Assembly (NCBI GenBank): GCA_964501025.1
Contig: CAZCRD010000103.1
Span: 3,412-67,411, forward strand
DNA length: 64,000 nucleotides
Reading direction: 5' to 3'
Source: an uncultured Candidatus Cloacimonadota bacterium
GTDB lineage: Bacteria > Cloacimonadota > Cloacimonadia > Cloacimonadales > Cloacimonadaceae
A program made the position numbers and the translations under genes. Below are positions 47,119 to 64,000 of this stretch, piece after piece (the first letter of the stretch is position 1; each line of letters opens with the position of its first letter). Below the pieces are notes generated by a model. The model saw nothing but the letters and a program-made list of their open reading frames with translations. It was not told the DNA's origin and made no database searches.

Positions 47119-48546
47119 CTAATCCAGATATCGCTTCAGGCGGTTTACGGATATCCCCAGATATCTTGCCGTTTGGCTTTTGTTGTTGTTATGCAAAGCC
47201 AAAGCCTTATGGATGATGCTACTGATCGCCTTGTTCAAGCCAAAATCCGTTTCCGGAAACTCCAAAAAGAGCTGTCTCTTGCCCAGTGCGTCGAAATTTA
47301 TGGGGCTATTGGGCAACAGGAAAGAGAAGTAATCTGGAGCGATTTCTATAGCTTCCGAGATCAGATACGCACGTTCCATCGCTCCCTGCAATTCGCGCAC
47401 ATTGCCCGGCCAGGAGTATTCACGCAAAAGTCTGGCAGTATCATTGGTCAGAAACTTCAAGGGCTGATGTTTTTTCGCGGATATCTGTTTGAGAAACAGC
47501 TGTGCCAGCGGAATGATCTCATCACGTCGCTCACGCAGAGGCGGGATCTTGATGAAGACTGTGGAGATGCGATAGAATAGATCACTGCGAAATTGCTGAT
47601 CCGCAACGAGAGTCTGCAGATCGTGATGAGTGGCAAAGAGAAAGCGAATATCCAGAGCAATGCTTTTGGTGCCTCCCACCCGATACATCTCGCGTTCTTG
47701 AATCACGCGCAAAAGTTTTGGCTGCATATCAAGGGGCAGATCTCCGATTTCATCCAGCAGCAGCGTGCCACCATTGGCCATTTCCAGTTTGCCGATTTTC
47801 CCCTCGCGATTGCTGCCGGTGAAGGCACCCCGTTCATAGCCAAAGAGTTCGCTTTCAAAAAGAGTGGGCGGAATGGCAGAGCAATTCAAAGTAATAAAGG
47901 GACGCGTGTTTGATTCCTCACCAAAATGGATGAGCCTGGCGATAAGTTCTTTGCCGGTGCCGGTTTCACCAGTGATGAGTACCGGCAGATCACGGTCTTT
48001 ATGGATTCTCAGACACAGGCTCGTGATCTGACGCATGGCTTCAGAATAGACCCCCATTCCCTTGAAACCAAGCTCTTGCTGATATTCACTTTGCAATGCT
48101 GCCAGCTCTTTCTTGACTGCATCCAGGCGAGCTTGGAGGGCAGTTTCAAAATCCTGCTTCAGCAGCTTCAATTCCCTGCGTTCCTGCAAGATAACTCCGA
48201 GTTGCTTGATTTTTGTAGCCAGAAGTTCCAAAGACAAGGATTTGGGCAAGACCTCATCTGCTCCATACTCCAAAGCTTTCAATTGGGCTTCCGTGTCGGT
48301 TTCACCACACAGGACAATGATCGTGCCATTCCATAGCTGCCCTTTGAGATGATCCATGAGATCAAAACTGTCCAGACCCGGCATCATCAATTCGCTGATG
48401 ATCATATCCGGCATCGCAGTGGGTAAAATATCCAAGGCTGCTTCGATGCTGGAGCAAGCTTGGCAATTGTGCCCCAATTGCACTTTGAGAAAGTTCTGTA
48501 TGGCTTCAAGGAAGAGCGAGTCACTTTCTATTACCAGTATGTTCAT
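47119..48546 (-). CDS. Sigma54-dependent response regulator (REC - AAA+ - Fis-type HTH; NtrC family)
   Basis: REC (NILVIESD...DMIISELMMPG), Walker A GETGTGKE, GAFTG loop, ESELFGY and a C-terminal HTH (KSQTARYLGISVNRLKRYL). The ATG at 48546 forms an ATGA overlap with the kinase stop. Confidence 0.9.
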   Translation of the reverse strand: MNILVIESDSLFLEAIQNFLKVQLGHNCQACSSIEAALDILPTAMPDMIISELMMPGLDSFDLMDHLKGQLWNGTIIVLCGETDTEAQLKALEYGADEVLPKSLSLELLATKIKQLGVILQERRELKLLKQDFETALQARLDAVKKELAALQSEYQQELGFKGMGVYSEAMRQITSLCLRIHKDRDLPVLITGETGTGKELIARLIHFGEESNTRPFITLNCSAIPPTLFESELFGYERGAFTGSNREGKIGKLEMANGGTLLLDEIGDLPLDMQPKLLRVIQEREMYRVGGTKSIALDIRFLFATHHDLQTLVADQQFRSDLFYRISTVFIKIPPLRERRDEIIPLAQLFLKQISAKKHQPLKFLTNDTARLLREYSWPGNVRELQGAMERAYLISEAIEIAPDYFSFLLPNSPINFDALGKRQLFLEFPETDFGLNKAISSIIHKALALHNNNKSQTARYLGISVNRLKRYLD

Positions 48547-50201
48547 TGCATATCTCCAAAGTGCAGGCGAAATCCCCAAGCATCGTCTTTTTTGTGAATG
48601 TTTAGCCTGTAACCATAATGGTCACAGAGATATTTCACGATAGCCATACCCATCTCGGAAGCGGCATTTTGGGTATCTGGTGAAAGGGGATTGTATAGCT
48701 GATTCATCATCTCACGGGTAACTTCAACCCCGTTTTGCATGATGTCCAAACAGAGTTTGCCATCAGCGCAGCAAGCTTCGATCTTGAGCACCTTTTGTTT
48801 TCTAGGACATCGTTCCAGGATACTCACACAGTGGGCTAAGAGGTTTATGATAATCTGTTGCAAATGTGTGGGCGCTGCTTTGATGGGAGGAAAGGAACCG
48901 CAGCCCAGGCTGATGAGCTCGATTCCGCCAGCAAAGATTCTGCGGCTGAGCAGGCACAGAGATTGCTCGATGGTCTCATCCAAGCTGCAAAGCTTGATCT
49001 CAGCCGTCTTTCCCGAGTTCCAAAACTGACGGATCTGCTGGAGGAAGGCTTCAATGCGCTTTACCCCTTCCATGATGTGCGCCAATTCCTGATTGAAGTT
49101 CATCGGCAAAGTAATTTCCTCGCGCTTGAGCCAATAGAGGATGCTTTCCGTGGATATTCGGATGGCTGAAAGAGGTTGATTTAACTCGTGGGTAATCCCC
49201 GAAGAAAGGATGCCCAGTGTAGCCAGACGCGCAGAACGTTCGGTAAGGTTCATCGAGATCAGATTCCGGTTTTCCCGCGCATAATAGCTCTGGATACTAT
49301 TTGCTTTCTTGATGGTATCGGAACTAATGATCTGTCCATATAGCTGGCTGTAAGCGAATTGAGCCTTGAAGGCCGCTTCCCATTGCTGCTGTTCGGCATA
49401 ATAATCGGCCAACAGAGCTTGACTTTTCAATTGATAATTCTGCAGCAAATTTTGTTCTGCTTGATCCTTGGCCTCCAATAGTAGCTGCAGTGCCAATTCC
49501 TGATTCCCCAGTGCTTTGTTTGCCATCGCCTGGTTCAAGCTCAAAGCGCAGGAAATTTCTTTGGGGGTTTCCACCGTGCTCGAATGCATCAAAGCAGAGG
49601 CTTCATCCAGCTCCGCCAATGCGGCTTCAGGTTCTTGCTGCTTGCACAGGATATCACTGATGTTGATGTGGCTGATGATCATGCTGCGGATATTCCGGTT
49701 TTCTTGGGCTATGGCCAGCGCTTGACGGTAGTATCCGATAGCTGCATCCAATTCTCCCTTGAGCATGCGCAAATAGCCGAGATTGTTCACACTGCGTTCA
49801 TAGCCGGAATGTAGAGCATGTGACTTCTCAAAACACTCGGTGGCCTTGGGAATATTTGAGAGCTGGATAAAAATGTCGCCCATGCTGTTATAGGCTTCAG
49901 CTTCCCAGTTTTTATTTCCCAATTGCTGGTTCAAGCGCTGTGCTCTCAGGTAATACTCCAAAGCAGCGTCGTAATCATCCAAATAGGCGTAAAAAGTACC
50001 GATCAGGTGCAAGGCCTCAGCCTGAACACTTTCTTCACCCAGATTCATCCCCAGCTCAAGAGCTGCTTCAGCAAAGGTCTTGCCGGAATTGTATTCACCG
50101 GTTTTCCATGCTTCAGCAGCAAGCTCCAAGAGCAGCTTCGAACGCTGATGCGGATCTGTACTTTCTTTTAGCTGTTGCTTCAATTGCGTAATGTCTTTCA
50201 T
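48543..50201 (-). CDS. Cytoplasmic TPR-repeat sensor histidine kinase
   Basis: About 250 aa of TPR-like repeats. H-box GITHELNQPLSAI and an HATPase_c C-terminus. No TM segment. Confidence 0.85.
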   Translation of the reverse strand: MKDITQLKQQLKESTDPHQRSKLLLELAAEAWKTGEYNSGKTFAEAALELGMNLGEESVQAEALHLIGTFYAYLDDYDAALEYYLRAQRLNQQLGNKNWEAEAYNSMGDIFIQLSNIPKATECFEKSHALHSGYERSVNNLGYLRMLKGELDAAIGYYRQALAIAQENRNIRSMIISHINISDILCKQQEPEAALAELDEASALMHSSTVETPKEISCALSLNQAMANKALGNQELALQLLLEAKDQAEQNLLQNYQLKSQALLADYYAEQQQWEAAFKAQFAYSQLYGQIISSDTIKKANSIQSYYARENRNLISMNLTERSARLATLGILSSGITHELNQPLSAIRISTESILYWLKREEITLPMNFNQELAHIMEGVKRIEAFLQQIRQFWNSGKTAEIKLCSLDETIEQSLCLLSRRIFAGGIELISLGCGSFPPIKAAPTHLQQIIINLLAHCVSILERCPRKQKVLKIEACCADGKLCLDIMQNGVEVTREMMNQLYNPLSPDTQNAASEMGMAIVKYLCDHYGYRLNIHKKDDAWGFRLHFGDMQ

Positions 50202-50738: not shown

Positions 50739-51113
50739 ATGGTAGCCATAATCGTTCAGGACGACCTGATCCGCCAAGCATTACAGGGACTCTTGCAAAG
50801 AGCCGGAGTAAGAGCCAGGTTCTACAGCAAGATTAGTGAATCAAGTGCCGCAATCATGGAAAATCCAGCTGACTTGGAAGCCGTGATCATTGATTATGAC
50901 ATTGATCCCGATCTCTGCAGATGGCTGATATCAGGCATTATCAAGCTTACCGAACAGGTTAAGATACTTGTTTATTCAGATTTTCCCATCTTTGGTTTTC
51001 GGGAACCAGACACGAGGAATCCCTATCTCTGCCTCAAAGAGAAACCCTTTATTCTCAGTGATATACTGGAAACAATAACAAGCGATACAAGGAGGAAACA
51101 TGTCTCGCTATAG
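50739..51113 (+). CDS. Stand-alone CheY-like receiver protein
   Basis: 124 aa with IIVQDD (acidic pocket), VIIDYDI (putative phospho-Asp), ILVYSD and KEKPF (conserved Lys-Pro). AAGGAG RBS. Confidence 0.6.
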   Translation: MVAIIVQDDLIRQALQGLLQRAGVRARFYSKISESSAAIMENPADLEAVIIDYDIDPDLCRWLISGIIKLTEQVKILVYSDFPIFGFREPDTRNPYLCLKEKPFILSDILETITSDTRRKHVSL

Positions 51114-53535
51114 AAAGTCCTTAATTCGTGCTCGTCGCATACTCTTTATTTTGATGTTGGCTGGCCTTTCCGGGAGTTTATTTGCATCGTACTCCAAGCT
51201 GCCTGAGGCTCGCATTAGTCCTTATAACCAGGTTAATCAAGCAATACCCAGGGTCAATGATTTTAAAGCAGACCAAAATGATGCCTCAAACTGGCAGGCT
51301 TATCTGAATCCTTACAACTTCTCTGCCATGATCGAGGATGGTGACTATTTGTGGTTTGCCAGTCCCATGGGAGTCTTGAAGCACAATACCCTTTCCGGTC
51401 AAACCGAATTGATCAATACCGCCAATAGCGGAATAAACTCGAATTTTGTATCCGATATGATGCTACACTCATCCGGTGACTATTGGTTTGCACACACTAC
51501 CTTGGTTTCAGATGACAATAGCTGTGGTGGCATCAGCATCTTGCATCCCGATGGCAGCTGGACCGTCTGGAACTATGAGAATGCGCCTTTTCATTCAAAC
51601 AACATCATGTGTTTGGGCGAAGATGATATTGGTAGAGTGTGGATTGGCTATGGTATGAACGGATATTCCGAAGGCGGGATGTCTATGTATGACCCCTCCA
51701 ATGGAGAATGGCAATACTTCAACAAACACAATTCCGATATGCCTTCGAATACAGTATATTCCTTTCATTTGGCAGCTGACGGCAAGCTTTGGGTAAGCCT
51801 CACGGGTGACGTGGATCCGGATCCCTATGAGGGCGGTGGTTTAATGAGCATACAAGGTTACGATTGGCAGGTCTATACTACTCAGATTGCCGATGATCCA
51901 GCAGAACCGCTCAAAGAATGGTCGATCAAAAACATAGTGGAAGATAGCCAGGGAAATCTCTGGTTTGCCCTTTCCGGATCTGTGGATTCGGCATTGTACC
52001 AGTATGACGGTGAAAATTTCATCCGCTATGAAGCACCATTTGTTGCCATGTATTGGGATGTCGCCATCGATGCCCAGGATAACATTTATGTGAATGGTAT
52101 CGTGAGCCGGGTTTACAAGTTTGACGGAACAAACTGGACAACCCTGCCCGATCCTGATGCCATAGCCGATGGCAATTACATCCAGAACATTTGGATGGAC
52201 TCCAACAGCAAATTGTGGGTAGCTCTATATGATGGTTATCTGGTTACTTACGAAAACGATACTTATACATATCCAAATCTGGAGTTGGATAGTCCGGTCA
52301 AAGGCTTAAACAGCTTTTGGACTATGGATTCTGATGGGCTTGGTAACACATACTTCGGTACTGGTTGGTATGTATGGGGAGCCATCCCCACCGCAGCATC
52401 GCTGATGCATTGGGATGAAAGCCAGTGGCAGAGCTTTAATTACACCTCCTATCAAAACTATGTAGTAAATGATATCGCCTGGGATATGCAAGGCAAGCTC
52501 TTGATCGCCACCGGAGATTCGAACTCTGATGCAGCAAATCTCTTTGACATGTACGGCTCGGTATGCCGTCAGACGGAGAATGGCTGGATCAAGTATGATT
52601 ATGAAACCACCGGCTATCCCTTTATCTATGCAAAACTGGCACAAGAGGATTACAATGCTTTTCTCTGGGCTGGCACCAATACCAATGGTCTTGCAGTTTA
52701 CGATGGCGTGGATTGGACGGTATATGACAGCAATAATGTTCCCAATATGTCTGTGATGATTATGGACATTCTGGCCAGTCACAATGAGCCCGTAGTATGG
52801 GTAGCCACTGCCAGCGGAATATTCAGAGTGGATATCAGTGATTCGGAAAACTATATCTGGGAACACTACCATCCTCTCAATTCTGAGCTCCCGGCATGGT
52901 GTGTAAACACTTTGGCCTGGGATGCAGATGGAAGTCTGTTGATCGGGACAGAATCCGGTCTGGCGAGATTTCAAAACAATGAACTCAGCGTAATGCAGGA
53001 TCTTGACGGAGTCTATATCACAGATCTTAGCATGGATGAAAATGGTGATCTTTGGCTCGGAACCATTAGCAATGGTTTGCTATGTGTTGCGGATGATTCG
53101 GTGACAGCTTATACCCGCAGCAATAGCCCCTTGCCCTCAAACACTATTTACTATGTAGCTTCGGATCAACGAGGTACGCTGTGGATTCATCCACATAATA
53201 ACGGTTTGTATCGCATGGACTACAACAGCTCCACCGCTGATGATCCAGCTCTGCCCCGGCCCGTTGCTCAGCTCAAAAACTATCCCAATCCCTTTAATCC
53301 GGAGACTGCAATCAGTTTTGAGCTACCTGAGGCCAATGATGCTAAGATCGGTATCTACAACCTGAAAGGACAATTGGTAAAAAGCTATCCCAAGACCAGA
53401 TATCCTGGAGGTATTCATCAAATCAGCTGGGATGGCAAGTCCGACCAAGGTGTTCCCTGCAGCAGCGGAATCTACTTCGTTCGTGTGCAATCAGACAACT
53501 ATAGCCTAAACCACAAAATGACCCTGATGAAATAG
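51100..53535 (+). CDS. Secreted protein with two-component-regulator-propeller (Reg_prop-like) repeats and a T9SS/FlgD-Ig-like C-terminal sorting domain
   Basis: Signal anchor. Many repeats of the type D..G.LW.GT..GL..YD...W..Y....S.LPSN.I. The C-terminus reads NYPNPFNPETAISFELPEA...IGIYNLKGQLV...SGIYFVRVQ...KMTLMK. Confidence 0.75.
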   Translation: MSRYRKSLIRARRILFILMLAGLSGSLFASYSKLPEARISPYNQVNQAIPRVNDFKADQNDASNWQAYLNPYNFSAMIEDGDYLWFASPMGVLKHNTLSGQTELINTANSGINSNFVSDMMLHSSGDYWFAHTTLVSDDNSCGGISILHPDGSWTVWNYENAPFHSNNIMCLGEDDIGRVWIGYGMNGYSEGGMSMYDPSNGEWQYFNKHNSDMPSNTVYSFHLAADGKLWVSLTGDVDPDPYEGGGLMSIQGYDWQVYTTQIADDPAEPLKEWSIKNIVEDSQGNLWFALSGSVDSALYQYDGENFIRYEAPFVAMYWDVAIDAQDNIYVNGIVSRVYKFDGTNWTTLPDPDAIADGNYIQNIWMDSNSKLWVALYDGYLVTYENDTYTYPNLELDSPVKGLNSFWTMDSDGLGNTYFGTGWYVWGAIPTAASLMHWDESQWQSFNYTSYQNYVVNDIAWDMQGKLLIATGDSNSDAANLFDMYGSVCRQTENGWIKYDYETTGYPFIYAKLAQEDYNAFLWAGTNTNGLAVYDGVDWTVYDSNNVPNMSVMIMDILASHNEPVVWVATASGIFRVDISDSENYIWEHYHPLNSELPAWCVNTLAWDADGSLLIGTESGLARFQNNELSVMQDLDGVYITDLSMDENGDLWLGTISNGLLCVADDSVTAYTRSNSPLPSNTIYYVASDQRGTLWIHPHNNGLYRMDYNSSTADDPALPRPVAQLKNYPNPFNPETAISFELPEANDAKIGIYNLKGQLVKSYPKTRYPGGIHQISWDGKSDQGVPCSSGIYFVRVQSDNYSLNHKMTLMK

Positions 53536-53544
53536 GAGAACTCA

Positions 53545-56500
53545 ATGATACGCAACATCTTGATAATAGTATTTTGCCTGTGCTCCATTCTTCATGCTGT
53601 ATACCTGCATGAAGGATGGGACGCGGGCTCCTTTGCAGCCAATGCCTGGCACAAAGATGCCTCGTGTGAAAACTGGCAGGTGATGAATATAGGTGGATAC
53701 CACTTACGTTTTGGCGGTTTTCCGGAACTGGAGAACTATAATAGCAGCCTGCAATCCCAGATCTTTGATCTTGCCGGTGTAAGCTCGCTATCGCTGGAGT
53801 TTAAGCTCAAAGGAATCAGCCTGGAAGCCACACAAAGTGAATATATGGCAGTAGAATACAGGATTGACAATTCTGAATGGATAGCGATATTCGATATCGA
53901 AGCGACAATAGGCGATGTAATGGATCCCCTTGAATCATACAGCTATAGCTTCAGTGAACCAATCGCAGGAAACACTATTCGCTTTCGCTTTAGGGCTTAT
54001 GGCGAGAACAGCGCAAACTTCATGTTTTGGCAAATTGACGACATCCTGCTCAAAGACCAGGATTATCAAGCTCCAGCCATTATCAGCGGAATTGTGACTG
54101 ATTCTAACATGCAAGCCATTGCAGATGCATTGGTTAGCGATGGCCAAAACTATGTTCGCACTGGATTTTCCGGTACTTATACTTTGCCGGTGCAGCCCTC
54201 AGCTCAAATTGCAGTCACCGCCAGGGCTTTCAGCTATTACGATGGCTCTGCCCAGCTAATCAACATCGAATCCGAGGCTTCAGCCATAGCGGATATCACG
54301 CTGCAAGCTGAAGACGGAGAGCTCATGGATCCTTTTGCTATGAATGCCAGTGTGTATTACTCTGATACGGGCGCTTCTTGCGGTGTGTACTGGAATGCAG
54401 TGCATGAGTTTCCTGGAGATGGAGTATTAGAATTGGCTTACGACTCTCCTCCTGTAGATTACTTCTACAATCCTTTCATGATCAATGAATGTGAGTACAT
54501 GGTGGTAAAGTATGAACGGGATTGGGATCTCAATCTCGGAGCCGTGAAACTGGCACTCAGAAGTATGATGCCTACATCGGTGGAACTGGTTGCTTTTTAT
54601 GAGAGCAATGGTCAGCCAGATCTGAATAATCCCGTCTTTGATAGCCCTCAGATATTTGATTTTGTGCCTGAGGTCTCGGGATATCCGCAATGGCAGCAGT
54701 TTCCTCTGCCCTTCTTCATAGAGGCTCAGACTCCCTTTTATCTGGGAGTAAAATATCGAAATGGAGATCTCTATAGCGTTGGCATCACTCCGACTGATGA
54801 GAGCAGAACCTACTATAGTTTCGACAGTGAAAACGATTGGGAAATCAGCAGCGGTGAAGCAGCCATGATTCGCCTCTTGGGCAATGAATATGAACCATGG
54901 GATGCACGCAATCTGCTGGGATACAATCTCTACCACAATCATCAATTGGTGAACGATACTCCCCTGATGGGAAGCTATTATTATGATGATCAGCTTGATT
55001 GGGGGGAACACATATACTATGCCACAGCGGTTTACAGCACTGGCGAGAGCAATATCACCAACAGCGTGTGCGTAAACGTCAGACCGGTGGCAATCAGCTC
55101 CGTAAACCTCAATCAAAACCCCAGCGGAGATCAATATGTCATCGTGAGTATGATTGCCTACAAGGTCCATGGAGGTGTATCAAGCCTGAGCTTGCTGCGA
55201 AACGGAATAGAGATCTACAACTATGCAAATCCCGATCCCGAACAAAACTTGCTCGAATGCATCCACTTGGATTACAATCTGGAAAACGACACCGCGGTCG
55301 AGTATCAGCTACTGGCCAGTTATCTGGACGGCAGCAGTTCTCTGAGTGCTGTGTATCAATATCGCTGTTTATTGCCTCCAGAAAATCTTGTGGCAGAAGG
55401 ATGTGAGGCCGGCGTAGCGCTATCTTGGGATGCACCCGTGTCGCCCAATCGTGCTTTACTGGGCTATCGCATCAGCCGAAACGGTAATGGAGATTATCTG
55501 GAGTTTGATACTTTGATTCTGGAAACCGAGTATCTGGATACTGGAATGGAACTGGGTTTGGTTTACGATTATCTGGTTTCCGCAGTATATGAAGATGGCG
55601 TGGCAGATTCACCCTTAGTATCCGTGGTGGCAGGTCCTGCTGTATATCATCCGGTTACAAATCTGGAATCTGCCATCGAAAACAATCAAGTCAAGCTAAG
55701 ATGGGATCGCCCTGATGATACCTACATGATCTTAAGCAAAAATGCTCCGGGAAAATCCCAGGGTTTTGCTCCGGGACACAACTTCACTGCCGGCATCAAC
55801 TTCATCCCCGGGCAAATGATGGACGCCATCAATCACATTAGTGCAGGTCTGGCCTTCATACCTGTGTCCGATGCCCCGGTAACAGTGAGAGCCTACAATT
55901 GCAGCAATCCCGAAGAAGAGTATCTTTGTGATGAGATAGTATTGGAAACTCCCACTGCCGGCGAATGGAACTTCGTGCCTTGCTATAGTATAAACGTGGA
56001 GTCTATGCTGGCTGCATACAGATTTGAGCTGGAAACAGATGGTGGGCTGATGCTGGATGATGCCACCAGCCCTGTAGCCGGAGCCAATGCTATCATGGTC
56101 GATGGTGAGATCAGCGATCTGCAAACCCAATATGGGATCAACCAAAACTGGAAGTTTGCCATCAAACTAAAAGAGACGGATCATGTCAACCCCTGTACTC
56201 GCGATCTCTATCCTGTGCTAACCGGCTATAAAGTGGTATGCAACTCTGAAGAGATCTCCATGGAAAGCGAATTCGATCAATTCTATCAGGAGCCAGCAAG
56301 CAATGACGAATATCGTGCATACTACATCCTTGCCGTTTATGACACTGGAGAATCCGATCCCAGCAATACAGTGGAAGTGGCACCAGTATCGATCTCTGAT
56401 GAGGATATAGCTGTCCCGTCAATCGCCCTGCAAAATCATCCTAATCCCTTTAACCCCAATACCAAGATCAGTTTTAATCTGCGTGAAGCGTCTGATATAA

Positions 56501-56691
56501 AACTACAGATATTCAACGTGAAGGGGCAAATAGTAAAAACGCTGCACCAGGGTCATTTAGCAGCCGGAAAACACACGCTAATATGGAATGGAATAGATGA
56601 TAACAAGCGACCAGTAAGCTCGGGAATCTACTTCCTGCGTCTGGACGACGGACGTAAGATCAATCACAAGAAAATGTGCTTACAAAAATAA
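53545..56691 (+). CDS. Giant secreted multidomain protein (carboxypeptidase-regulatory-like and FN3-like modules) with a T9SS/FlgD-Ig-like C-terminal sorting domain
   Basis: Signal peptide. ISGIVTDSNMQAI...GTYTLPV (CarboxypepD_reg-like). PPENLVAEG...ALSWDAP...GYRISRNG (FN3-like). The C-terminus reads NHPNPFNPNTKISFNL...LQIFNVKGQIV...SGIYFLRL...KKMCLQK. Confidence 0.7.
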   Translation: MIRNILIIVFCLCSILHAVYLHEGWDAGSFAANAWHKDASCENWQVMNIGGYHLRFGGFPELENYNSSLQSQIFDLAGVSSLSLEFKLKGISLEATQSEYMAVEYRIDNSEWIAIFDIEATIGDVMDPLESYSYSFSEPIAGNTIRFRFRAYGENSANFMFWQIDDILLKDQDYQAPAIISGIVTDSNMQAIADALVSDGQNYVRTGFSGTYTLPVQPSAQIAVTARAFSYYDGSAQLINIESEASAIADITLQAEDGELMDPFAMNASVYYSDTGASCGVYWNAVHEFPGDGVLELAYDSPPVDYFYNPFMINECEYMVVKYERDWDLNLGAVKLALRSMMPTSVELVAFYESNGQPDLNNPVFDSPQIFDFVPEVSGYPQWQQFPLPFFIEAQTPFYLGVKYRNGDLYSVGITPTDESRTYYSFDSENDWEISSGEAAMIRLLGNEYEPWDARNLLGYNLYHNHQLVNDTPLMGSYYYDDQLDWGEHIYYATAVYSTGESNITNSVCVNVRPVAISSVNLNQNPSGDQYVIVSMIAYKVHGGVSSLSLLRNGIEIYNYANPDPEQNLLECIHLDYNLENDTAVEYQLLASYLDGSSSLSAVYQYRCLLPPENLVAEGCEAGVALSWDAPVSPNRALLGYRISRNGNGDYLEFDTLILETEYLDTGMELGLVYDYLVSAVYEDGVADSPLVSVVAGPAVYHPVTNLESAIENNQVKLRWDRPDDTYMILSKNAPGKSQGFAPGHNFTAGINFIPGQMMDAINHISAGLAFIPVSDAPVTVRAYNCSNPEEEYLCDEIVLETPTAGEWNFVPCYSINVESMLAAYRFELETDGGLMLDDATSPVAGANAIMVDGEISDLQTQYGINQNWKFAIKLKETDHVNPCTRDLYPVLTGYKVVCNSEEISMESEFDQFYQEPASNDEYRAYYILAVYDTGESDPSNTVEVAPVSISDEDIAVPSIALQNHPNPFNPNTKISFNLREASDIKLQIFNVKGQIVKTLHQGHLAAGKHTLIWNGIDDNKRPVSSGIYFLRLDDGRKINHKKMCLQK

Positions 56692-56717: not shown

Positions 56718-56743
56718 AAGCCCCGATTTTTCGGGGCTTTTTT
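56718..56743 (+). terminator. Rho-independent terminator after the 53545 gene
   Basis: AAGCCCCGA-ttt-TCGGGGCTT followed by TTTTT. Confidence 0.8.
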
Positions 56744-56988
56744 GTCTGCTGAAAGCTTGAAAGTAAGATCAGCTTAAGCTATACATGAGGGTATTGTGTT
56801 TGTGACTTGCAAGTTAGCATCAAAATCTCGCAGCTCTGTTGCGGATACAAAGTGAGAAGAGCCCATATCCAGAAGGCGACTTGCTAAAGTGCGAGGCACC
56901 GGCCATCAAACATTTTCATTGACAGCTTTTGCCCTTCATGAGATCCATCAACGAACATGAAATTGGTCCCATATTTGAGGTGTGTATT

Positions 56989-59955
56989 ATGAAAATGGAA
57001 GAGCTTAATTATTACTACAATAAATTTAAGTTCGGAGAAGACATCTTTCATCAATTGATGCAAAGACGTGTGCGGGATATCCTCTTGGTTTCTACCTTTT
57101 ACGATGCCTTTATCTTTGAGCAGGATGGCAGACTATCGGAGCAAATCTTTGGTGAATATCGGCAGCTAAATCTCTCCACAGCGCCCCGGATCACTTCTGT
57201 GCCCACCGGAGCTGAGGCTTTGGAAAAACTGAAGACTCACTCCTACGATCTGGTAATAACGATGATGCGCATTGGCGAAATCGGTCCTTTTGAGCTGGCA
57301 AAACAGGTGAAAGAAGATCATCCGGATCTGACCGTGCTCTTGCTGCTAAACGTGGCCTCGGACTATGTGATCTGGGAAAATCACGAAGAGGAACGGCAGT
57401 ACATCGACGACGTCTTTCTTTGGAATGGCGATACCAAGCTCTTTTTGGCTATGGTAAAAAATGTGGAAGACAATATAAATGTGGAATACGACACGTCCCA
57501 CGGCCTGGTGAGGGTGATCCTGCTGGTGGAGGATTCTGTCCATTACTATTCCATGTTTTTACCTTCTTTATATTCTGTGATCATGAAACAGACTCAAAAA
57601 CTCATCGAAGAAGAGGTGAGCGACATCAATAAGCACCTGCGCATGAGGGTGCGTCCCAAAGTGCTCCTGGCACACGATTATGAGGAAGCCGTGCGTCTGT
57701 ATGAGAAATACAAGGAGTATATCCTCTGCGTGATCTCGGATGTTCGCTACCGAGTGGCCGGGGAGATCGATGCCCATGCCGGGATCAAATTGATCCGCCA
57801 TGTGATGGCCAAAAACCGCGATCTGCCCATGATCCTGCAATCTTCCGAAGATGAGAATGAAGCAGTCGCCCAAGACTTGAACGTGCATTTTTTGAACAAA
57901 AACTCCAAGCATCTCTTCAAAGACCTGCGTGAGTACATGGTGTTTAGCTTGGGCTTTGGCAATTTCATCTTTCGCAGCCCCAAAGGCAAGATCATCGATG
58001 AAGCTTCAAACATAGCGGAATTTGAAGATAAGATCCTCAAGATCCCGGTTGATTCTCTGGAGTTTCACAGTAGATTTAATCACTTTTCAAACTGGCTGAT
58101 CGCCCATGGTGAGATTCAAATCGCCAAGAAGATCCGGCCCATGAAGATCGAAGACTTTGAATCCAGAAATGAATTGCGGCAATTTTTGTATCACATCTTC
58201 CGCACGGTGCGCATCGAGAAAAACCGCGGCAAAATCATCAATTTTGACGCAGTGTCACTGGCGGAAATGAATCAGATCATCCGACTCACAGAAGGCTCAT
58301 TGGGTGGCAAGGGACGTGGCCTGGCCTTTCTGAATGCGCTGCTGTGTACCATGGATTATGAAAAGAAATTTGAGAACACTTCGATATCTCTACCTTCCAC
58401 GGCAATCATCGGCACTAATGAGTTTGACCAGTTTGTAGAACGCAATCACATAGTGGAAAAAATCCAGGGCAAGACCGATGAGGAAATCGACGAGCTTTTT
58501 ATCGAGAGCGAGCTCTCGGAAGGTCTGGTACGCCGACTGGAGATATATCTGGATGCCGTGAAGTATCCCATAGCGGTGAGATCTTCCAGCCTGCTGGAGG
58601 ATTCTCAGGCGCAGCCTCTGGCTGGAGTGTATCGCACTTTTATGTTGCCAAACAATCATGCCGACAAGATGCACCGGTTACGCCAGCTCATGGACGCCAT
58701 CAAGCTGGTCTTTGCCTCAGTGTATCTCAGCGATGCACGCAATTTCCTGGATTCCCTCAATTTCAAAGCGGAAGAGGAAAAAATGGCTGTGATCATCCAG
58801 GAAACTGTGGGTTGCCTGATCGGTGATAAGTATTACTATCCGCATATCTCTGGCGTGGCGCAATCTTACAATTTCTATCCCACTTCGCACATGCAACATG
58901 CAGATGGCATTGCCAATATCGCACTGGGTTTGGGGAAATCTGTGGTAGAAGGGAAGCTGAACTACCGGTTTTGTCCCCGCTATCCGGATATCGACATGCT
59001 GCCTCCAGAAGAGATGATGCGCAATTCCCAGAAGGAGTTTTACGCCCTGAATCTGGCCAACAACGACTTTGACCTGATCGGCGGAGAAGAGATCACGCTT
59101 TCCAAGCTCACGCTCAAGGATGCCGAAAAGCATGATACCATCCGCTATCTCGCCTCGGTCTGGGATTATGAAAACTATCGGCTCACAGACAATCTGCAGG
59201 AACGGGGAATGAAAGTCCTCACCTTTTCCAGCATCCTCAAATACAATTACTTCCCCCTGGCCAAGATCGTGGAAGAACTGCTGGAAATCGGGGAAATAGC
59301 TTTGGGCATCCCGGTGGAGATCGAATTTGCCGTCAATCTGGATTACAAGAATTGCTATACCAACAAACCCACCTTTTACATCCTGCAAATCCGCCCGCTT
59401 TCGGTAAGCACTGATGCCTATCACATTGATACGGAAAAACTGGATAAGAGTGAGCTATTGATGTTTACCGAACATGGCATGGGCAATGGAGTGATCGAAG
59501 AGCTGCGTGATGTGATCTATCTGGATCCTAATACTTTTGACAAAACCATGACCCACGAAATGCAGGCTGAGATCGAGAATTTCAATGCCAAGATGGCTCA
59601 GCAAGGCAAACGCTATATCCTGATCGGACCGGGACGCTGGGGCTCCAGAGACAAGTTTTTGGGGATCCCGGTGCGCTGGCCTCAGATCAACCGTGCTAAA
59701 GTGATCCTGGAAACGGGACTTCGGGATTTCATCGTGGAAGCGAGTCAGGGTACGCACTTCTTCCACAATCTGGTAGCTATGAACGTGGGGTATTTTACCA
59801 TACCCTATGTCTCACAAACCGATTTTGTAGATATTGACTGGTTGCTCAGCCAACCCCACTGCGAAAAAGGAGAATACTTTGTGCATATTGAATTTGACCA
59901 TCCGCTTCTGGTGATGATGGATGGAAAGACCGGTACCGCAATAATCCACAAATAG
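56989..59955 (+). CDS. Pseudo-receiver / receiver / PPDK_N-type ATP-grasp (PEP/pyruvate-binding-domain family) protein, paralogue 1
   Basis: REC-like 1 (ILLVSTFYD...YDLVITMM). REC 2 (ILLVEDS...CVISDVRY...ILQSS). ATP-grasp motifs GGKGRGLAFLN, AVRSSSLLED...AGVYRTF and ILQIRPLS. Conserved unassigned tail. Start at the ATG at 56989 after GAGG. Confidence 0.75.
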   Translation: MKMEELNYYYNKFKFGEDIFHQLMQRRVRDILLVSTFYDAFIFEQDGRLSEQIFGEYRQLNLSTAPRITSVPTGAEALEKLKTHSYDLVITMMRIGEIGPFELAKQVKEDHPDLTVLLLLNVASDYVIWENHEEERQYIDDVFLWNGDTKLFLAMVKNVEDNINVEYDTSHGLVRVILLVEDSVHYYSMFLPSLYSVIMKQTQKLIEEEVSDINKHLRMRVRPKVLLAHDYEEAVRLYEKYKEYILCVISDVRYRVAGEIDAHAGIKLIRHVMAKNRDLPMILQSSEDENEAVAQDLNVHFLNKNSKHLFKDLREYMVFSLGFGNFIFRSPKGKIIDEASNIAEFEDKILKIPVDSLEFHSRFNHFSNWLIAHGEIQIAKKIRPMKIEDFESRNELRQFLYHIFRTVRIEKNRGKIINFDAVSLAEMNQIIRLTEGSLGGKGRGLAFLNALLCTMDYEKKFENTSISLPSTAIIGTNEFDQFVERNHIVEKIQGKTDEEIDELFIESELSEGLVRRLEIYLDAVKYPIAVRSSSLLEDSQAQPLAGVYRTFMLPNNHADKMHRLRQLMDAIKLVFASVYLSDARNFLDSLNFKAEEEKMAVIIQETVGCLIGDKYYYPHISGVAQSYNFYPTSHMQHADGIANIALGLGKSVVEGKLNYRFCPRYPDIDMLPPEEMMRNSQKEFYALNLANNDFDLIGGEEITLSKLTLKDAEKHDTIRYLASVWDYENYRLTDNLQERGMKVLTFSSILKYNYFPLAKIVEELLEIGEIALGIPVEIEFAVNLDYKNCYTNKPTFYILQIRPLSVSTDAYHIDTEKLDKSELLMFTEHGMGNGVIEELRDVIYLDPNTFDKTMTHEMQAEIENFNAKMAQQGKRYILIGPGRWGSRDKFLGIPVRWPQINRAKVILETGLRDFIVEASQGTHFFHNLVAMNVGYFTIPYVSQTDFVDIDWLLSQPHCEKGEYFVHIEFDHPLLVMMDGKTGTAIIHK

Positions 59956-59987
59956 AAATCCCGTGTGTGTGAATTGAGGTTTTTGTT

Positions 59988-62927
59988 GTGATTGCCACAA
60001 ACTTTTGGGCAGAAGAAGCAGGGCTCCTGGAAGCACTGATGCCGGTGAGGGTGCGTAGTGTACTCTTGATCTCATCGCTGTATGACTCTTTTGTCTTTGA
60101 AGTGGATGGCTTTTTGGCAGAGCAGGTGGCAGAGGATTTTTATCTTCTGAATCTGAGCAATTTCCCCAATATCCATCATGCCTCATCTTTGGAAAAAGCT
60201 CTGAGTCTCTTGCAGCTGGAGAAGATCGACCTGGTGATCATCCATCTGGCATCCCAACGAGCGATTGCTTTGGATCTTTTGACCAAGATCAAGGAATATG
60301 ATTCCACCCTGCCCATATTCTTCTTTTTGGGTGTTCCCCAGGATTTGATGTTTATTGAAAACCATCTGCCAGAGCTGGATCAGGTGGAAGATTTCTTTTA
60401 TTGGAACGGCGATTCCAAACTCTTTCTGGCTGTGATCAAGCAATGGGAAGAGCGGCAAAACATTGATCATGATGCCGAAATCTATGATCTGCCCATCATC
60501 ATGGTGGTGGAAACCTTCATCCCTTATTACTCGCAGTTTTTGCCGCTGCTTTATGAACAAACCATGCAGCTCAATCAATCCGTGATTCGTAGTGAACATC
60601 AGGACAGCAACAAGGGCTTGTATCTGAATGCTCGTCCCAGGATCCTGCTCGTGCATGATTTTGCGGCAGCCAAGGCAGCTTATGAGGCTTATTCCCGCTC
60701 GATCATCGGCATCATCAGCAATGTGAATTATAACCATCGGGGAAATCAACACCGGGATGGAGGAATTCAGCTTCTGCAATACATCCGCAAGGTGAATCCC
60801 AGCCTGCCATTCCTCTTGCAATCCTTCAACCCCATGTACCGGGATATCGTGAGCAGCAATGAAGGTGACTTCCTTTACAAAGACTTGCCAGGATTGTCTC
60901 AGCAGCTGCTGAGATGGCTGAAGACCGAAGCAGGTTTTGGAGCTTTTAGCTTTCGAGGCGAGCAACGCAATACCATTGCCGAAGCTCATACTTTGATTGG
61001 TTTTCACAGCGCAATCCAAGAGATCCCGGATGACATCCTCTGCTATCACTGGCAGAATCGTCACATTCACCACTGGTTTGCCACACATGCGGAATTGGGA
61101 TTATGCCGGTATCTGGCAAATCTGCCTTTGGAGATCAATGCTGCTGAGATCAGAGCCTCTTTGTGTGCAGCCCTGGAATCCTTAATCGCTTACCGCAGAC
61201 GGGAAAAGATCCAGGAATTTAATGATGAAGCGGATTTCCGGCTCCCGCTTATCTACAAGATCGGCGAAGATTCCATCGGGGGCAAAGGGCGCGGTCTGGC
61301 CTTTCTGAATGTAGTGCTAAACCGCTTTAGCAGCATCTGTGAGAAATACCCCGCTGTGGAAATCACTGTACCTGTGGCAGCTGTATTGGCCACCGGTATC
61401 TTTGACGAATTCATCCTGCACAATTCGGCATTACATGATATCGAAGCCCTGGAAGATCTTTCTGACCAGGAGATTGACGAGATTTTCCTGCATGCTGATC
61501 TCGCTCCGGCTGCTTTTGAAAGCCTGGAGCATATCATCCGGCTGTGTGATTTTCCCCTGGCTGTCCGTTCTTCAAGCGTCCTGGAAGACCACATCACCAA
61601 TCCCTTTGCCGGTGTGTTTCGCACTTTCATCATTGCAAACAACCATCCCGACAAAGAACAGCGGCTCTGCCAACTGATCGACGCGGTAAAACTCGTCTAT
61701 GCTTCAATGTTCCTAAAAAGTGCCAGAGTCTATCGGGAATCCCTAAACATCCCGGCCCGAGAAGAAAAAATGGCAGTGATCATTCAGAAAGTGGCGGGAT
61801 CTCATCATGGCAATTTGTTTTATCCTCTGGTATCTGGAGTAGCTCAGTCTTACAATTACTATCCCGGCATCGGCATGAACCACGAAGATGGCGTGGTCAC
61901 GCTCTCTACCGGCCTTGGCAAAAACGCTGTGGAACGCGGACGCACCTTTGCCTTTTGCCCTCGCCATCCCAACAAAGATATGTTCCCGGCCGTAGATATT
62001 GTCAAAAATGCCCAACGCTATTTCTACGCCTTGTCGGATCAGCAACAGGATCTGAATCTCAAAGACGATGAATCTGCCACTCTGGTCAAAGTCCGGATTT
62101 CCAACTCTCTGTTGGAAGGTCATCTGCAAGTACTTTCTTCGGTGTGGGATCACAACAATCTGGAATTTCTCAGTGGCAAATATGTGCGAGGTCCGAGAGT
62201 AATCACATATCGGGATCTACTGCATTACAAGACCTATCCCCTGGCCGATATCATCATGGATTTCCTGGAATTGGGAAGAGTGGTATTGGGTTGTGAATCC
62301 GAGATAGAATTTGCCTTTGATATCAATGAAGATAGCGGCAAAGCTACGTTTAGCCTTCTGCAGATCAGACCGATCTCAGTAAATAAATTACTCTATAGCG
62401 AGGCTCTGGAGGGATATCTGAAGCGCAAAGACGAGATTCTGCTCTTTTCTTCCTATGCTCTGGGCAGTGATATCACTACAGAGATTACCGATGTGGTCTG
62501 CCTGCGTCCAGAGCGCTTTGATATCGTCAAGACCGAGCTAATGGCGCTGGAGATCGAGAGGATAAACGAGCAATACAAAAACACTCAAACAAAGTATATC
62601 CTGATGGCACCGGGGCGATGGGGATCTTCAGATCGCTTTTTGGGCATTCCCGTGGCCTGGAGTCAGATCACGGCAGTGGCTGTAATCGTGGAATTGGTCT
62701 TGCCAAATATGAGCATTGAGGCCAGTCATGGCAGTCATTTCTTCCACAATCTGTTCAGCATGGGAGTAGCATATCTGACTGTGCTGCAAGACAAAGACTA
62801 TGTCAATTGGCAATGGCTGGATACCTTGCCTCTTGTTTATGAAGAGCAGTACTTTGAAGTACGCCGCAGCCCCCAACCCTTTAATATTCTCTTTGACGGC
62901 AAGAATTCCGTGATCAAAAAAGGATAG
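59988..62927 (+). CDS. Pseudo-receiver / degenerate receiver / PPDK_N-type ATP-grasp protein, paralogue 2
   Basis: Collinear with paralogue 1 (GGKGRGLAFLN, AVRSSSVLED...AGVFRTF, LLQIRPIS, APGRWGSSDRFLGIPV, GSHFFHNL). The second receiver has GIISNVNY, with Asn at the Asp position. GTG start. Confidence 0.75.
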   Translation: MIATNFWAEEAGLLEALMPVRVRSVLLISSLYDSFVFEVDGFLAEQVAEDFYLLNLSNFPNIHHASSLEKALSLLQLEKIDLVIIHLASQRAIALDLLTKIKEYDSTLPIFFFLGVPQDLMFIENHLPELDQVEDFFYWNGDSKLFLAVIKQWEERQNIDHDAEIYDLPIIMVVETFIPYYSQFLPLLYEQTMQLNQSVIRSEHQDSNKGLYLNARPRILLVHDFAAAKAAYEAYSRSIIGIISNVNYNHRGNQHRDGGIQLLQYIRKVNPSLPFLLQSFNPMYRDIVSSNEGDFLYKDLPGLSQQLLRWLKTEAGFGAFSFRGEQRNTIAEAHTLIGFHSAIQEIPDDILCYHWQNRHIHHWFATHAELGLCRYLANLPLEINAAEIRASLCAALESLIAYRRREKIQEFNDEADFRLPLIYKIGEDSIGGKGRGLAFLNVVLNRFSSICEKYPAVEITVPVAAVLATGIFDEFILHNSALHDIEALEDLSDQEIDEIFLHADLAPAAFESLEHIIRLCDFPLAVRSSSVLEDHITNPFAGVFRTFIIANNHPDKEQRLCQLIDAVKLVYASMFLKSARVYRESLNIPAREEKMAVIIQKVAGSHHGNLFYPLVSGVAQSYNYYPGIGMNHEDGVVTLSTGLGKNAVERGRTFAFCPRHPNKDMFPAVDIVKNAQRYFYALSDQQQDLNLKDDESATLVKVRISNSLLEGHLQVLSSVWDHNNLEFLSGKYVRGPRVITYRDLLHYKTYPLADIIMDFLELGRVVLGCESEIEFAFDINEDSGKATFSLLQIRPISVNKLLYSEALEGYLKRKDEILLFSSYALGSDITTEITDVVCLRPERFDIVKTELMALEIERINEQYKNTQTKYILMAPGRWGSSDRFLGIPVAWSQITAVAVIVELVLPNMSIEASHGSHFFHNLFSMGVAYLTVLQDKDYVNWQWLDTLPLVYEEQYFEVRRSPQPFNILFDGKNSVIKKG

Positions 62928-62990: not shown

Positions 62991-64000
<1,010 letters not shown>

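Follow-up and report, generated by a model that had tools for sequence, protein, structure and literature searches.

The characterised enzymes that contain the PPDK_N ATP-grasp nucleotide-binding domain use ATP to phosphorylate a carrier residue, and all of them pass the phosphate through a canonical swivel histidine domain. Most of them act on small molecules: pyruvate in the case of PEP synthase (PpsA) and pyruvate phosphate dikinase (PPDK), rifampicin in the case of rifampicin phosphotransferase (Rph), and prodigiosin precursors in the case of the PigC/RedH-type enzymes. PpsA and PPDK carry in addition a C-terminal PEP/pyruvate-binding TIM barrel, whereas Rph and PigC/RedH lack this barrel but have a dedicated substrate-binding domain. 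In signal transduction, PleD-type proteins combine a phosphorylatable receiver and an aspartate-less receiver in tandem ahead of a GGDEF output domain. Aspartate-less receivers and response regulators with a receiver and a pyruvate phosphate dikinase domain have been listed in censuses (Galperin et al. 2018, PMC5847659; Maule et al. 2015, PMC4395418). These papers only catalogue the combination and, at least in the passages that we consulted, mention no function, no C-terminal domain and no link to glutamate dehydrogenase (GDH); we found no functional study and no biochemical data for any member of the family described here. Finally, the 2-oxoglutarate node is subject to covalent or phospho-dependent control by unrelated protein families, i.e. 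by AceK acting on isocitrate dehydrogenase and by PknG with GarA/OdhI acting on ODH and GDH.

In a 64,000-nt stretch of DNA from an uncultured Cloacimonadota bacterium (referred to as the window), two neighbouring genes encode proteins of 988 and 979 amino acids that are 38% identical over 974 residues (BLASTP, E = 0). The first open reading frame could start at 56929 or 56989; homologues of 988 aa and a 100%-identical 979-aa database protein (P0121) fix the starts at ATG 56989 and GTG 59988, respectively. Both proteins consist of the same five parts (see the table). The observation made in a first-pass annotation of the sequence, i.e. two end-to-end paralogues with two receiver-like domains each, a PPDK_N-type domain, a conserved tail of about 170 residues and neither a swivel-histidine nor a PEP/pyruvate domain, is confirmed, and its reading of the domains was correct on every point that could be tested.

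Features of the window, with the residues that define them and the basis for each assignment (coordinates are those of the 64,000-nt window)
Coordinates	Strand	Feature	Residues and codons	Basis
56718..56739	+	Intrinsic-terminator-like hairpin plus T-run after the upstream secreted-protein gene; marks the pair as the start of a new transcription unit		Terminator scan and sequence
56989..59955	+	Paralogue 1 CDS (988 aa): pseudo-REC, REC, DUF5752-like linker, PPDK_N ATP-grasp, orphan C-terminal domain		ORF, translation, Pfam, homologues of 988 aa, AF2 model (pLDDT 84.6)
57070..57504	+	REC1, aspartate-less receiver (aa ~28-172)	Acceptor position Met92 (codon 57262-57264)	Pfam Response_reg 60-119, 6e-8; alignment to receiver 3a0r; AF2 (beta-alpha)5 for residues 30-172; Met conserved in nearly all family members
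57508..57951	+	REC2, canonical receiver with insertions (aa ~174-321)	E181, D182, D251 (codon 57739-57741), S285, K304	AF2 secondary structure; Foldseek hits to PleD and other tandem receivers; residue conservation
57952..58296	+	Linker domain (aa 322-436), beta-hairpin followed by a helical bundle, DUF5752-like		DUF5752 E 0.043 for this protein; homologues; AF2 secondary structure
58297..59433	+	PPDK_N-type ATP-grasp nucleotide-binding domain (aa 437-815)	GGKGRG (K441), AVRSSSLLED (R531), EIEFA (E779), LQIRP (Q800, R802)	Pfam 1.5e-36; closest solved sequence Listeria rifampin phosphotransferase 5hv6/5fbs, 5.5e-8; Foldseek PPDK 1ggo, 2e-4; invariant columns
59446..59952	+	C-terminal domain (aa 820-988), predicted alpha/beta fold with no detectable relative	G882, R883, G885, D888, E908, S919, G921, H923 (codon 59755-59757), F924, F925, N927, all invariant	AF2 domain model (pLDDT 88.6, pTM 0.87); no Foldseek, Pfam, PDB or hhalign match
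59988..62927	+	Paralogue 2 CDS (979 aa), same five-part architecture	REC1 acceptor position His86; REC2 Asn245 (codon 60720-60722) in place of the acceptor Asp, acidic pair E-T; ATP-grasp and tail invariants intact, including His917 (codon 62736-62738)	Translation, Pfam, BLASTP, identical database protein, orthologue statistics
62991..64000	+	5' part of an NADP-type glutamate dehydrogenase gene (gdhA), starting 64 nt after paralogue 2 and running off the window; no terminator predicted in between		Clusters with GDH genes of 29 related loci; NCBIfam PRK09414 passes its cut-off for orthologues; terminator scan
47119..50201	-	Candidate cognate two-component genes: TPR-HisKA-HATPase_c sensor kinase (48543-50201) and REC-sigma54-AAA-HTH_8 activator (47119-48579)		Pfam; gene clusters of related loci

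The two receivers differ in their predicted competence. In paralogue 2, Response_reg matches REC1 at residues 53-113 (0.0015). REC2 is not seen by Pfam in the window proteins, even though some homologues hit Response_reg or OKR_DC_1_N at this position. However, the AF2 model folds residues 176-321 as (beta-alpha)5 with a lengthened helix 1 (184-220) and a beta-hairpin after strand 3 (254-261), and the best Foldseek matches of the full-length model are the tandem-receiver proteins PleD (E 5e-8) and 3mf4/3luf, with hits to single receivers of TM up to 0.77 on the target. As compared to PleD, the order is reversed with the pseudo-receiver first, the output is an ATP-grasp rather than a GGDEF domain, and REC2 carries insertions. 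The acidic pair, the acceptor Asp, the Ser and the Lys of a phosphorylatable receiver are all present in REC2 of paralogue 1, but not in REC1 of either protein and not in REC2 of paralogue 2. For the linker, paralogue 1 scores 13.6 bits against the DUF5752 (PF19027) gathering score of 23, whereas 30 of 50 homologues match at E<=0.01 (best 2.3e-8), always with partial profile coverage between REC2 and PPDK_N.

The PPDK_N domain (PF01326) is also found in paralogue 2 (428-800, 1.6e-30) and in 50 of 50 homologues. The nearest sequence relatives of this part are the His-phosphocarrier enzymes Rph, PpsA and PigC/RedH, with PigC as the best NCBIfam hit (1.8e-12). The domain is homologous to that of PpsA and PPDK, with the GGK, RSS..ED, ExEF and LQxR motifs, and as in these enzymes a domain carrying an invariant His follows the ATP-grasp domain in the chain. 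Yet the proteins are not PpsA, PPDK or Rph: NCBIfam scores are 15-48 bits against cut-offs of about 500-1350, with 36.3 and 40.8 bits against 739.75 for TIGR01418, 35.3 and 36.7 against 598 for PRK06464, and 15.7 and 31.8 against 999 for the Rph model NF041857. No PEP-utilizers or PEP-utilizers_C hit was found anywhere, Pfam and NCBIfam coverage does not extend beyond PPDK_N, and only about 170 residues, predicted to fold as a small alpha/beta domain, follow it. PDB profile matches to Rph (Listeria 5hv1/5fbs) cover only the ATP-grasp segment 477-609. Like Rph and PigC/RedH, the family has PPDK_N without a TIM barrel and would use other domains for the acceptor; in contrast to these enzymes it has receivers, and neither a swivel domain nor a substrate-binding domain was found.

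The C-terminal domain resisted all attempts at assignment. None of 23 tails had a Pfam hit at E<=10 (including PF00391), there was no hit among PDB sequences, and the best Foldseek E-values for the tail model were 0.033 against PDB and 0.035 against BFVD, with no PPDK, EI, PpsA, SCS or ACLY chain among the 50 listed PDB hits. Our attempt to show that the tail is a divergent swivel domain failed: hhalign probabilities were below 1% against PpsA, PtsI and a 7-sequence His-domain alignment, although the swivel domain of Rph is easily detected from PpsA, and hmmsearch scores were no better than those of reversed or shuffled controls. Similarly, no similarity to the phosphohistidine domain of succinyl-CoA synthetase was detected (hhalign probability 0.09% against E. 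coli SucD).

The family is large: at least 594 loci are present in GTDB species genomes, and a profile of the tail finds 2162 representative proteins (clusters at 50% identity). In all nine architectures tested, the tail directly follows PPDK_N, whatever the N-terminus, and PPDK_N plus tail is an obligate core. The REC2 residues E181, D182, D251, S285 and K304 are conserved in 127/127 paralogue-1-like clusters and in nearly all GTDB members. K441, R531, E779, Q800 and R802 as well as the tail residues R883, D888, E908, S919, H923 and N927 are invariant or nearly so in more than 300 sequences, including the Asn-bearing paralogue. The first-pass annotation had regarded the two proteins as an active plus degenerate pair, but this applies only to the receiver of paralogue 2: the D-to-N and D-to-T changes are fixed in 65/66 and 66/66 orthologue clusters, respectively, while all catalytic-looking residues are retained. 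Thus, paralogue 2 is not decaying but is a conserved, phosphorylation-blind and, judged from its sequence, probably enzymatically competent protein. This arrangement is specific to Cloacimonadota; in the Bacteroidota tandem pairs of our sample both copies keep the acceptor Asp.

The strongest functional clue, which the first-pass annotation had missed, is the conserved linkage to NADP-glutamate dehydrogenase. A gdh gene lies within the flanks of the family genes in 29 of 80 GTDB loci, whereas we roughly estimate that less than one locus would be expected by chance. The other 51 loci show no gdh within the flanks, although many of these contigs are short. Moreover, gdh is adjacent in this window and in three further distant loci from Fidelibacterota, Marinimicrobia and one further lineage, and in the last, two kinase genes are followed by two gdh genes. 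The duplications in Cloacimonadota and Bacteroidota are independent, yet among the gdh-linked tandem pairs gdh follows the second copy in Cloacimonadota and in most Bacteroidota loci. In Bacteroidota, the gdh downstream of copy 2 and the gdh divergent from copy 1 form separate clades. The neighbour-joining trees of this analysis are rough and have no support values. Less often, the family is linked to 2-oxoacid metabolism: 2-oxoacid:acceptor (ferredoxin) oxidoreductase alpha/beta genes lie directly upstream in 16-17 loci, and NuoE/F-like genes are nearby in several others. Finally, a cluster of NtrC-type sigma54 activators lies beside the family/gdh cluster in four other loci of the GTDB set (L001, L004, L007 and L059), three of which (L001, L007, L059) also carry an adjacent kinase cluster whose L001 member is HisKA/HATPase_c. 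In the window, the corresponding genes are about 6.8 kb upstream, and this link is tentative.

The interpretation given in the first-pass annotation, a phosphorylation-gated ATP-dependent phosphotransferase with an unknown substrate, is partly supported: gating and ATP dependence fit the anatomy, whereas phosphotransferase chemistry and the role of the tail His, which had been proposed there as a speculative phospho-acceptor, remain inferences. Our analysis demonstrates the five-part architecture, the family-specific C-terminal domain with an invariant His in an S-x-G-(T/S)-H-F-F-x-N motif, PPDK_N plus tail as the conserved, putatively catalytic core, and the genomic tie to GDH; all that concerns mechanism, including phosphorylation by a kinase, catalysis and the target, is inferred. 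We tentatively suggest that the proteins are response-regulator-gated, dikinase-like phosphotransferases acting at the glutamate/2-oxoglutarate node. In this view, a histidine kinase, possibly the nearby TPR-HisKA kinase, would phosphorylate Asp251 of REC2, and as in PleD this would rearrange or dimerise the pseudo-REC/REC stem and switch on the ATP-grasp domain. The latter would phosphorylate a carrier residue, with His923 as the best candidate, even though this role rests on position and invariance only. The phosphoryl group would then pass to a target, most simply the neighbouring GDH, as a covalent on/off control, in functional analogy to AceK or PknG. Paralogue 2 would be a phosphorylation-blind isoform that is either constitutive or controlled by heterodimerising with paralogue 1. 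It should be kept in mind that no acceptor-binding domain is recognisable, and that gene adjacency does not distinguish between an action on GDH, co-regulation with GDH, and the use of glutamate or 2-oxoglutarate.

It is also possible, but less likely, that the core phosphorylates or ligates a metabolite of the glutamate/2-oxoglutarate pool, as a 2-oxoacid or amino-acid dikinase analogous to the conversion of pyruvate to PEP or as an ATP-grasp ligase using glutamate, with the tail as substrate-binding or catalytic domain and the receivers tuning the flux. The small-molecule substrates of most characterised PPDK_N enzymes, the dense set of invariant polar residues (R, D, E, S, H, N) in the tail, typical of an active site, and the metabolic neighbours of the same node would agree with this idea. 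However, the one-to-one pairing of paralogue lineages with GDH clades and the locus with two kinase genes followed by two gdh genes look more like regulator-target pairs than a pathway step, the elaborate double receiver is unusual for a pathway enzyme, and no transporter or follow-on enzyme for a phosphorylated product is conserved nearby. Even less probable is a non-covalent regulator that binds GDH or another partner and uses the ATP-grasp domain as an adenylate or energy sensor, with receiver phosphorylation changing the interaction. Many receiver proteins do act by protein-protein interaction, neither an acceptor nor a swivel domain is detectable, and the GDH linkage would fit as well, but the conservation, even in the Asn paralogue, of the residues aligned with the Mg/phosphate ligands of PPDK-type ATP-grasp domains (EIEFA, LQIRP, GGKGRG and RSS..ED) argues for catalysis rather than mere binding.

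We consider an internal relay, in which the ATP-grasp domain loads His923 to phosphorylate the REC2 Asp of the same protein or of its paralogue independently of a histidine kinase, as very unlikely. The His and Asp sites do coexist in one chain and are both conserved, and many loci have no adjacent histidine kinase; yet members without any receiver (such as the short copies in loci L009 and L059) keep PPDK_N plus tail, the Asn paralogue keeps the His and the ATP-grasp residues, so that the core must have an output other than the receiver, and histidine kinases are adjacent in several loci. An ordinary PEP synthase, PPDK or Rph, as suggested by the presence of PPDK_N and by database entries that call some homologues phosphoenolpyruvate synthase, is refuted by the searches described above.

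In this family, a clade of thousands of proteins has replaced the canonical swivel histidine domain of PPDK_N enzymes by a domain without recognisable relatives and has placed the enzyme part under a double-receiver switch. The family is common in gut and sediment Bacteroidales, in anaerobic-digester Cloacimonadota, and in Marinimicrobia/Fidelibacterota, and cultured hosts such as Odoribacter, Marinifilum and Mariniphaga anaerophila DSM 26910 make the question accessible to experiments. A reversible in-vivo inactivation of GDH in Bacteroides was reportedly described in the 1980s without a mechanism, and the family is a concrete, testable candidate for that role. It is tempting to speculate, although we regard this as unlikely on present evidence, that the C-terminal domain is a new kind of phosphohistidine carrier or catalytic domain, and that the family would be a two-component-controlled protein dikinase that covalently switches its neighbouring GDH on or off. 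This would be a previously unknown post-translational control of the glutamate/2-oxoglutarate branch point in Bacteroidota, Cloacimonadota and related phyla, with cognate kinase-GDH pairs and, in Cloacimonadota, a signal-blind partner isoform. The repeated, lineage-matched placement of the family beside glutamate dehydrogenase points to an unknown control layer on the main entry and exit point between carbon and nitrogen metabolism in these organisms.

The window carries two adjacent ORFs, and both the length of their homologues (988 aa) and a 979-aa database protein (P0121 in our listing) that is 100% identical to paralogue 2 fix the starts at ATG 56989 and GTG 59988, in agreement with the first-pass annotation. 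The two proteins align end to end, with 38% identity over 974 residues. A strong terminator-like hairpin precedes the pair, whereas no terminator is predicted in the 32-nt gap between the two genes or in the 64-nt gap before the next gene. The leader of about 250 nt between the hairpin and the start of paralogue 1 has no convincing sigma70-type promoter, although the promoter types of this phylum are not covered by the scan, and neither the leader nor the spacer between the pair and gdhA gave an Rfam match at E<=1 that would indicate a riboswitch or another RNA element. The closest homologues (up to 93% identity) come from Cloacimonadota metagenome bins, which places the window in that phylum. 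An exact-sequence search did not find paralogue 1 in the collection, and the cluster of paralogue 2 carries only the name "hypothetical protein". The coordinates of the features discussed here are compiled in the table.

Coordinates of the features at the locus in the window and at other loci of the family (L numbers are our labels for family loci examined in other genomes)
Locus	Position	Strand	Feature
Window	32876-33976	-	OAD_beta family gene (Na+-translocating decarboxylase beta subunit, 1e-154)
Window	47119-48579	-	NtrC-type sigma54 activator (REC-AAA-HTH_8), overlapping by 37 nt with the kinase gene
Window	48543-50201	-	TPR-HisKA-HATPase_c kinase
Window	51100-53535 and 53545-56691	+	Two large secreted-type proteins with FlgD_ig and Por_Secre_tail (type IX secretion sorting) C-termini, one with Reg_prop/SGL beta-propeller repeats and the other with CarboxypepD_reg
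Window	56718-56739		Terminator-like hairpin
Window	56740-56988		Untranslated leader of ~250 nt
Window	56989 (ATG)	+	Start of paralogue 1
Window	59988 (GTG)	+	Start of paralogue 2
Window	62991 to window end		NADP-type glutamate dehydrogenase gene
L004	10998-13109		PAS-PAS-HD_5 (HD-GYP-like) protein inserted between the family gene and gdh
L009	11122-13473		Short form (~780 aa) after the full-length copy, non-Bacteroidota locus
L059	10977-13322		Short form (~780 aa) after the full-length copy, non-Bacteroidota locus
L011	10968-17186		NuoE-like, NuoF-like and large Fe-S/flavin (GltD-like Pyr_redox_2/Fer4_20) genes next to the family gene
L085	14424-18622		NuoE-like, NuoF-like and large Fe-S/flavin (GltD-like Pyr_redox_2/Fer4_20) genes next to the family gene
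L087/L088	5011-13960		Two tandem family genes followed directly by two tandem glutamate dehydrogenase genes (453 and 455 aa), then a DDAH/ADI-family gene

Several lines of evidence define the domain anatomy of the two proteins. Pfam finds the PPDK_N ATP-grasp domain at residues 437-815 of paralogue 1 (1.5e-36) and 428-800 of paralogue 2 (1.6e-30) as well as a partial Response_reg match in the first ~120 residues. NCBIfam matches to PpsA, PigC/RedH and Rph cover only the ATP-grasp part and score 15-48 bits against cut-offs of roughly 500-1350. An AF2 model of the full-length protein, calculated from a 50-sequence alignment (mean pLDDT 84.6, pTM 0.71), shows two consecutive (beta-alpha)5 receiver folds (residues 30-172 and 176-321), the second of which has a lengthened helix 1 and a beta-hairpin after strand 3. 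These are followed by a linker made up of a beta-hairpin and helices (322-436), the ATP-grasp domain, and a separate alpha/beta domain (820-988). A Foldseek search with the whole model returned the tandem-receiver proteins PleD (5e-8) and 3mf4/3luf, single receivers, PorX, and the PPDK structure 1ggo (2e-4). In the first receiver (REC1), the acceptor position is occupied by Met92 in paralogue 1 and by His86 in paralogue 2. The second receiver (REC2) of paralogue 1 has the full set of residues E181, D182, D251, S285 and K304, whereas paralogue 2 has E-T at the acidic pair and Asn245 at the acceptor position. The linker is DUF5752-like: the match is sub-threshold here but appears in 30 of 50 homologues. 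The observation made in the first-pass annotation is thus real and was described accurately, as every one of its structural statements is confirmed.

The nature of the C-terminal domain was the open point. We suspected a divergent swivel phosphohistidine domain, since the order of the secondary-structure elements matches that of PEP-utilizers and since three motifs look alike: YILIGPGRW against ILVtxxTdPxW, SQGTHFFHNLVAMNVGY against GGxTSHAAIVARELGIPAV, and the terminal MDGKxGxAxI against vDGxxGxV. However, every test of this idea was negative. A domain-only AF2 model (pLDDT 88.6, pTM 0.87) has no significant Foldseek match in the PDB (best E 0.033, TM <= 0.35) or in BFVD. Pfam searches with 23 tails at E<=10 gave nothing coherent, and a profile search of PDB sequences at E<=10 gave nothing relevant. 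The alignment of a 100-sequence tail profile with hhalign gave probabilities below 1% against E. coli PpsA and PtsI as well as against a 7-sequence His-domain alignment built from E. coli genes and PDB alignments, and the one weak alignment used a different register that is incompatible with the AF2 secondary structure. Finally, an HMM of the His domain scored 236 real tails no better than reversed or shuffled tails. The possibility that the tail is a His-loop domain like that of succinyl-CoA synthetase was also rejected, since hhalign against E. coli SucD again gave a probability below 1%. Thus, the earlier claim that a swivel-His domain is absent stands, our alternative is not supported, and only a possible topological resemblance remains. 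The domain is confidently folded in the model, has no detectable relative, and carries a tight set of invariant polar residues (R883, D888, E908, S919, G921, H923, N927). The histidine sits at the start of a helix after a Gly-containing loop.

The family exceeds 7000 proteins in the 90% clusters, and at least 594 loci occur in GTDB species representatives. They span Cloacimonadota, many Bacteroidales (including the cultured Odoribacter, Marinifilum, Mariniphaga and Carboxylicivirga), Riflebacteria, Spirochaetes, Desulfobacterales, Chlorobiota and others. A profile of the tail alone finds 2162 representatives at 50% clustering. In all nine differently sized members that were examined, the tail directly follows PPDK_N, while the N-terminus varies and may be a double receiver, DUF5752 only, or 600-970 unassigned residues. 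PPDK_N plus tail is thus an obligate core, and the receivers are one of several regulatory front ends. Across the family, the acceptor position of REC1 is almost always Met, and REC2 keeps the canonical residue set.

Full-length tandem pairs on the same strand occur in 18 of 80 loci, and about 22 loci carry a second copy of any kind if short and inverted copies are counted. In the two loci with a short form of ~780 aa (L009 and L059), this form lacks the first receiver and the REC2 acceptor region but keeps the ATP-grasp and tail invariants, with Asn927 replaced by Asp. A rough NJ tree places the duplications in Cloacimonadota and in Bacteroidota as independent events. In the Bacteroidota tandem pairs of the sample, both copies keep the acceptor Asp, whereas the second copy has lost it in Cloacimonadota: among 66 orthologue clusters of paralogue 2 (48-100% identity), the change from Asp to Asn is found in 65 and the change from Asp to Thr in the acidic pair in all 66. 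Yet K441, R531, E779, Q800, R802, R883, D888, E908, S919, H923 and N927 are unchanged in all 66 clusters. Paralogue 2, which had been regarded as the degenerate partner of an active enzyme, is therefore a stably maintained, phosphorylation-blind version with an apparently intact enzyme rather than a decaying copy.

The main new clue comes from the genomic context. When the ORFs of the 80 loci and the window were clustered, an NADP-type glutamate dehydrogenase (GDH) was the only widely shared neighbour. It is present in 29 of 80 loci and in the window, and since many contigs are short, 29 is a lower bound. Our back-of-envelope estimate of the chance expectation, for one to two (1-2) gdh genes per 3-5 Mb genome and flanks of +/-8 kb, is below one locus. 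The identity as GDH is confirmed by NCBIfam, as PRK09414 passes its cut-off. There are two recurrent arrangements: gdh lies either immediately downstream on the same strand, usually after copy 2, or is divergently transcribed just upstream of copy 1, and three loci have both. Three further lineages that were looked up separately all have gdh within two genes, i.e. Fidelibacterota, Marinimicrobia, and a locus with two kinase genes followed by two gdh genes. In a GDH tree, the Bacteroidota gdh genes downstream of copy 2 form their own clade, separate from those divergent from copy 1. Each paralogue lineage thus travels with its own GDH lineage.

Other neighbours are shared less widely. The alpha and beta subunits of 2-oxoacid:acceptor oxidoreductase are encoded directly upstream in 16-17 Bacteroidales/Chlorobiota loci, and NuoE/NuoF-like genes appear in 7-8 loci and in Fidelibacterota. 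Together with the large Fe-S/flavin gene that lies next to the family gene in several Bacteroidales loci and in Fidelibacterota, the NuoE/NuoF-like genes look like an NAD(P)H/ferredoxin-linked redox module near GDH. The cluster of sigma54 activators recurs in the window and beside the family/gdh cluster in four other loci (L001, L004, L007 and L059), and a kinase cluster, whose L001 member is HisKA/HATPase_c, sits beside it in L001, L007 and L059. By contrast, the two genes for secreted-type proteins immediately upstream of the pair are not conserved next to the family elsewhere. Conserved partner genes for PpsA, PPDK or PtsI were not found by tblastn in the 80 loci or in the window, and the genes further upstream in the window (32-47 kb) show no obvious link. 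The OAD_beta family found there includes the glutaconyl-CoA decarboxylase of glutamate fermenters, and the gene may be relevant to amino acid fermentation in this organism.

Our analysis establishes the architecture, the conservation pattern, the core module and the linkage to GDH, whereas the mechanism, including receiver phosphorylation, the chemistry and the target, is inferred. The interpretation of the first-pass annotation as a phosphorylation-gated ATP-dependent phosphotransferase is therefore only partly supported. By analogy with PleD, phosphorylation of D251 in REC2 would change the stem formed by the pseudo-receiver and the receiver and would activate the ATP-grasp domain. This domain would then load a carrier residue, as in PpsA, PPDK, Rph and PigC. 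His923 is the candidate, since it is the only invariant His and lies in the domain that occupies the place of the swivel domain in the chain. The phosphoryl group would go to a target at the glutamate/2-oxoglutarate node. We favour GDH itself because of the lineage-matched pairing, but a metabolite acceptor or non-covalent regulation cannot be excluded. Paralogue 2 would be constitutive, or would be controlled through heterodimerisation. We are highly confident of the architecture, and we regard a functional tie to GDH or glutamate metabolism as likely. In contrast, phosphotransfer via His923 is a tentative proposal, and it is doubtful on present evidence that GDH is the direct substrate.

The ATP-grasp part of the proteins is a member of PPDK_N, but the proteins fail the other defining features of PpsA/PPDK and Rph, i.e. 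the swivel domain, the TIM barrel or rifampicin domain, and the curated cut-offs, and they should not be filed there. They are response regulators by fold and, in the case of paralogue 1, also by residues. Literature searches on PPDK_N in response regulators, on DUF5752, on pyruvate-binding domain proteins with GDH, on gdhA in Bacteroides together with response regulators and PEP synthase, and on the reversible inactivation of GDH in Bacteroides found no functional study, no description of the C-terminal domain and no mention of the link to GDH, but as most subscription journals were outside the literature searched, this absence is not proof. Only census mentions were found, and the combination of domains as such is therefore already recorded. 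What distinguishes the family from the PPDK_N enzymes with which we compared it is the orphan C-terminal domain and the control by receivers. The conserved, paired association with glutamate dehydrogenase and the availability of cultured hosts make this family a good experimental target.
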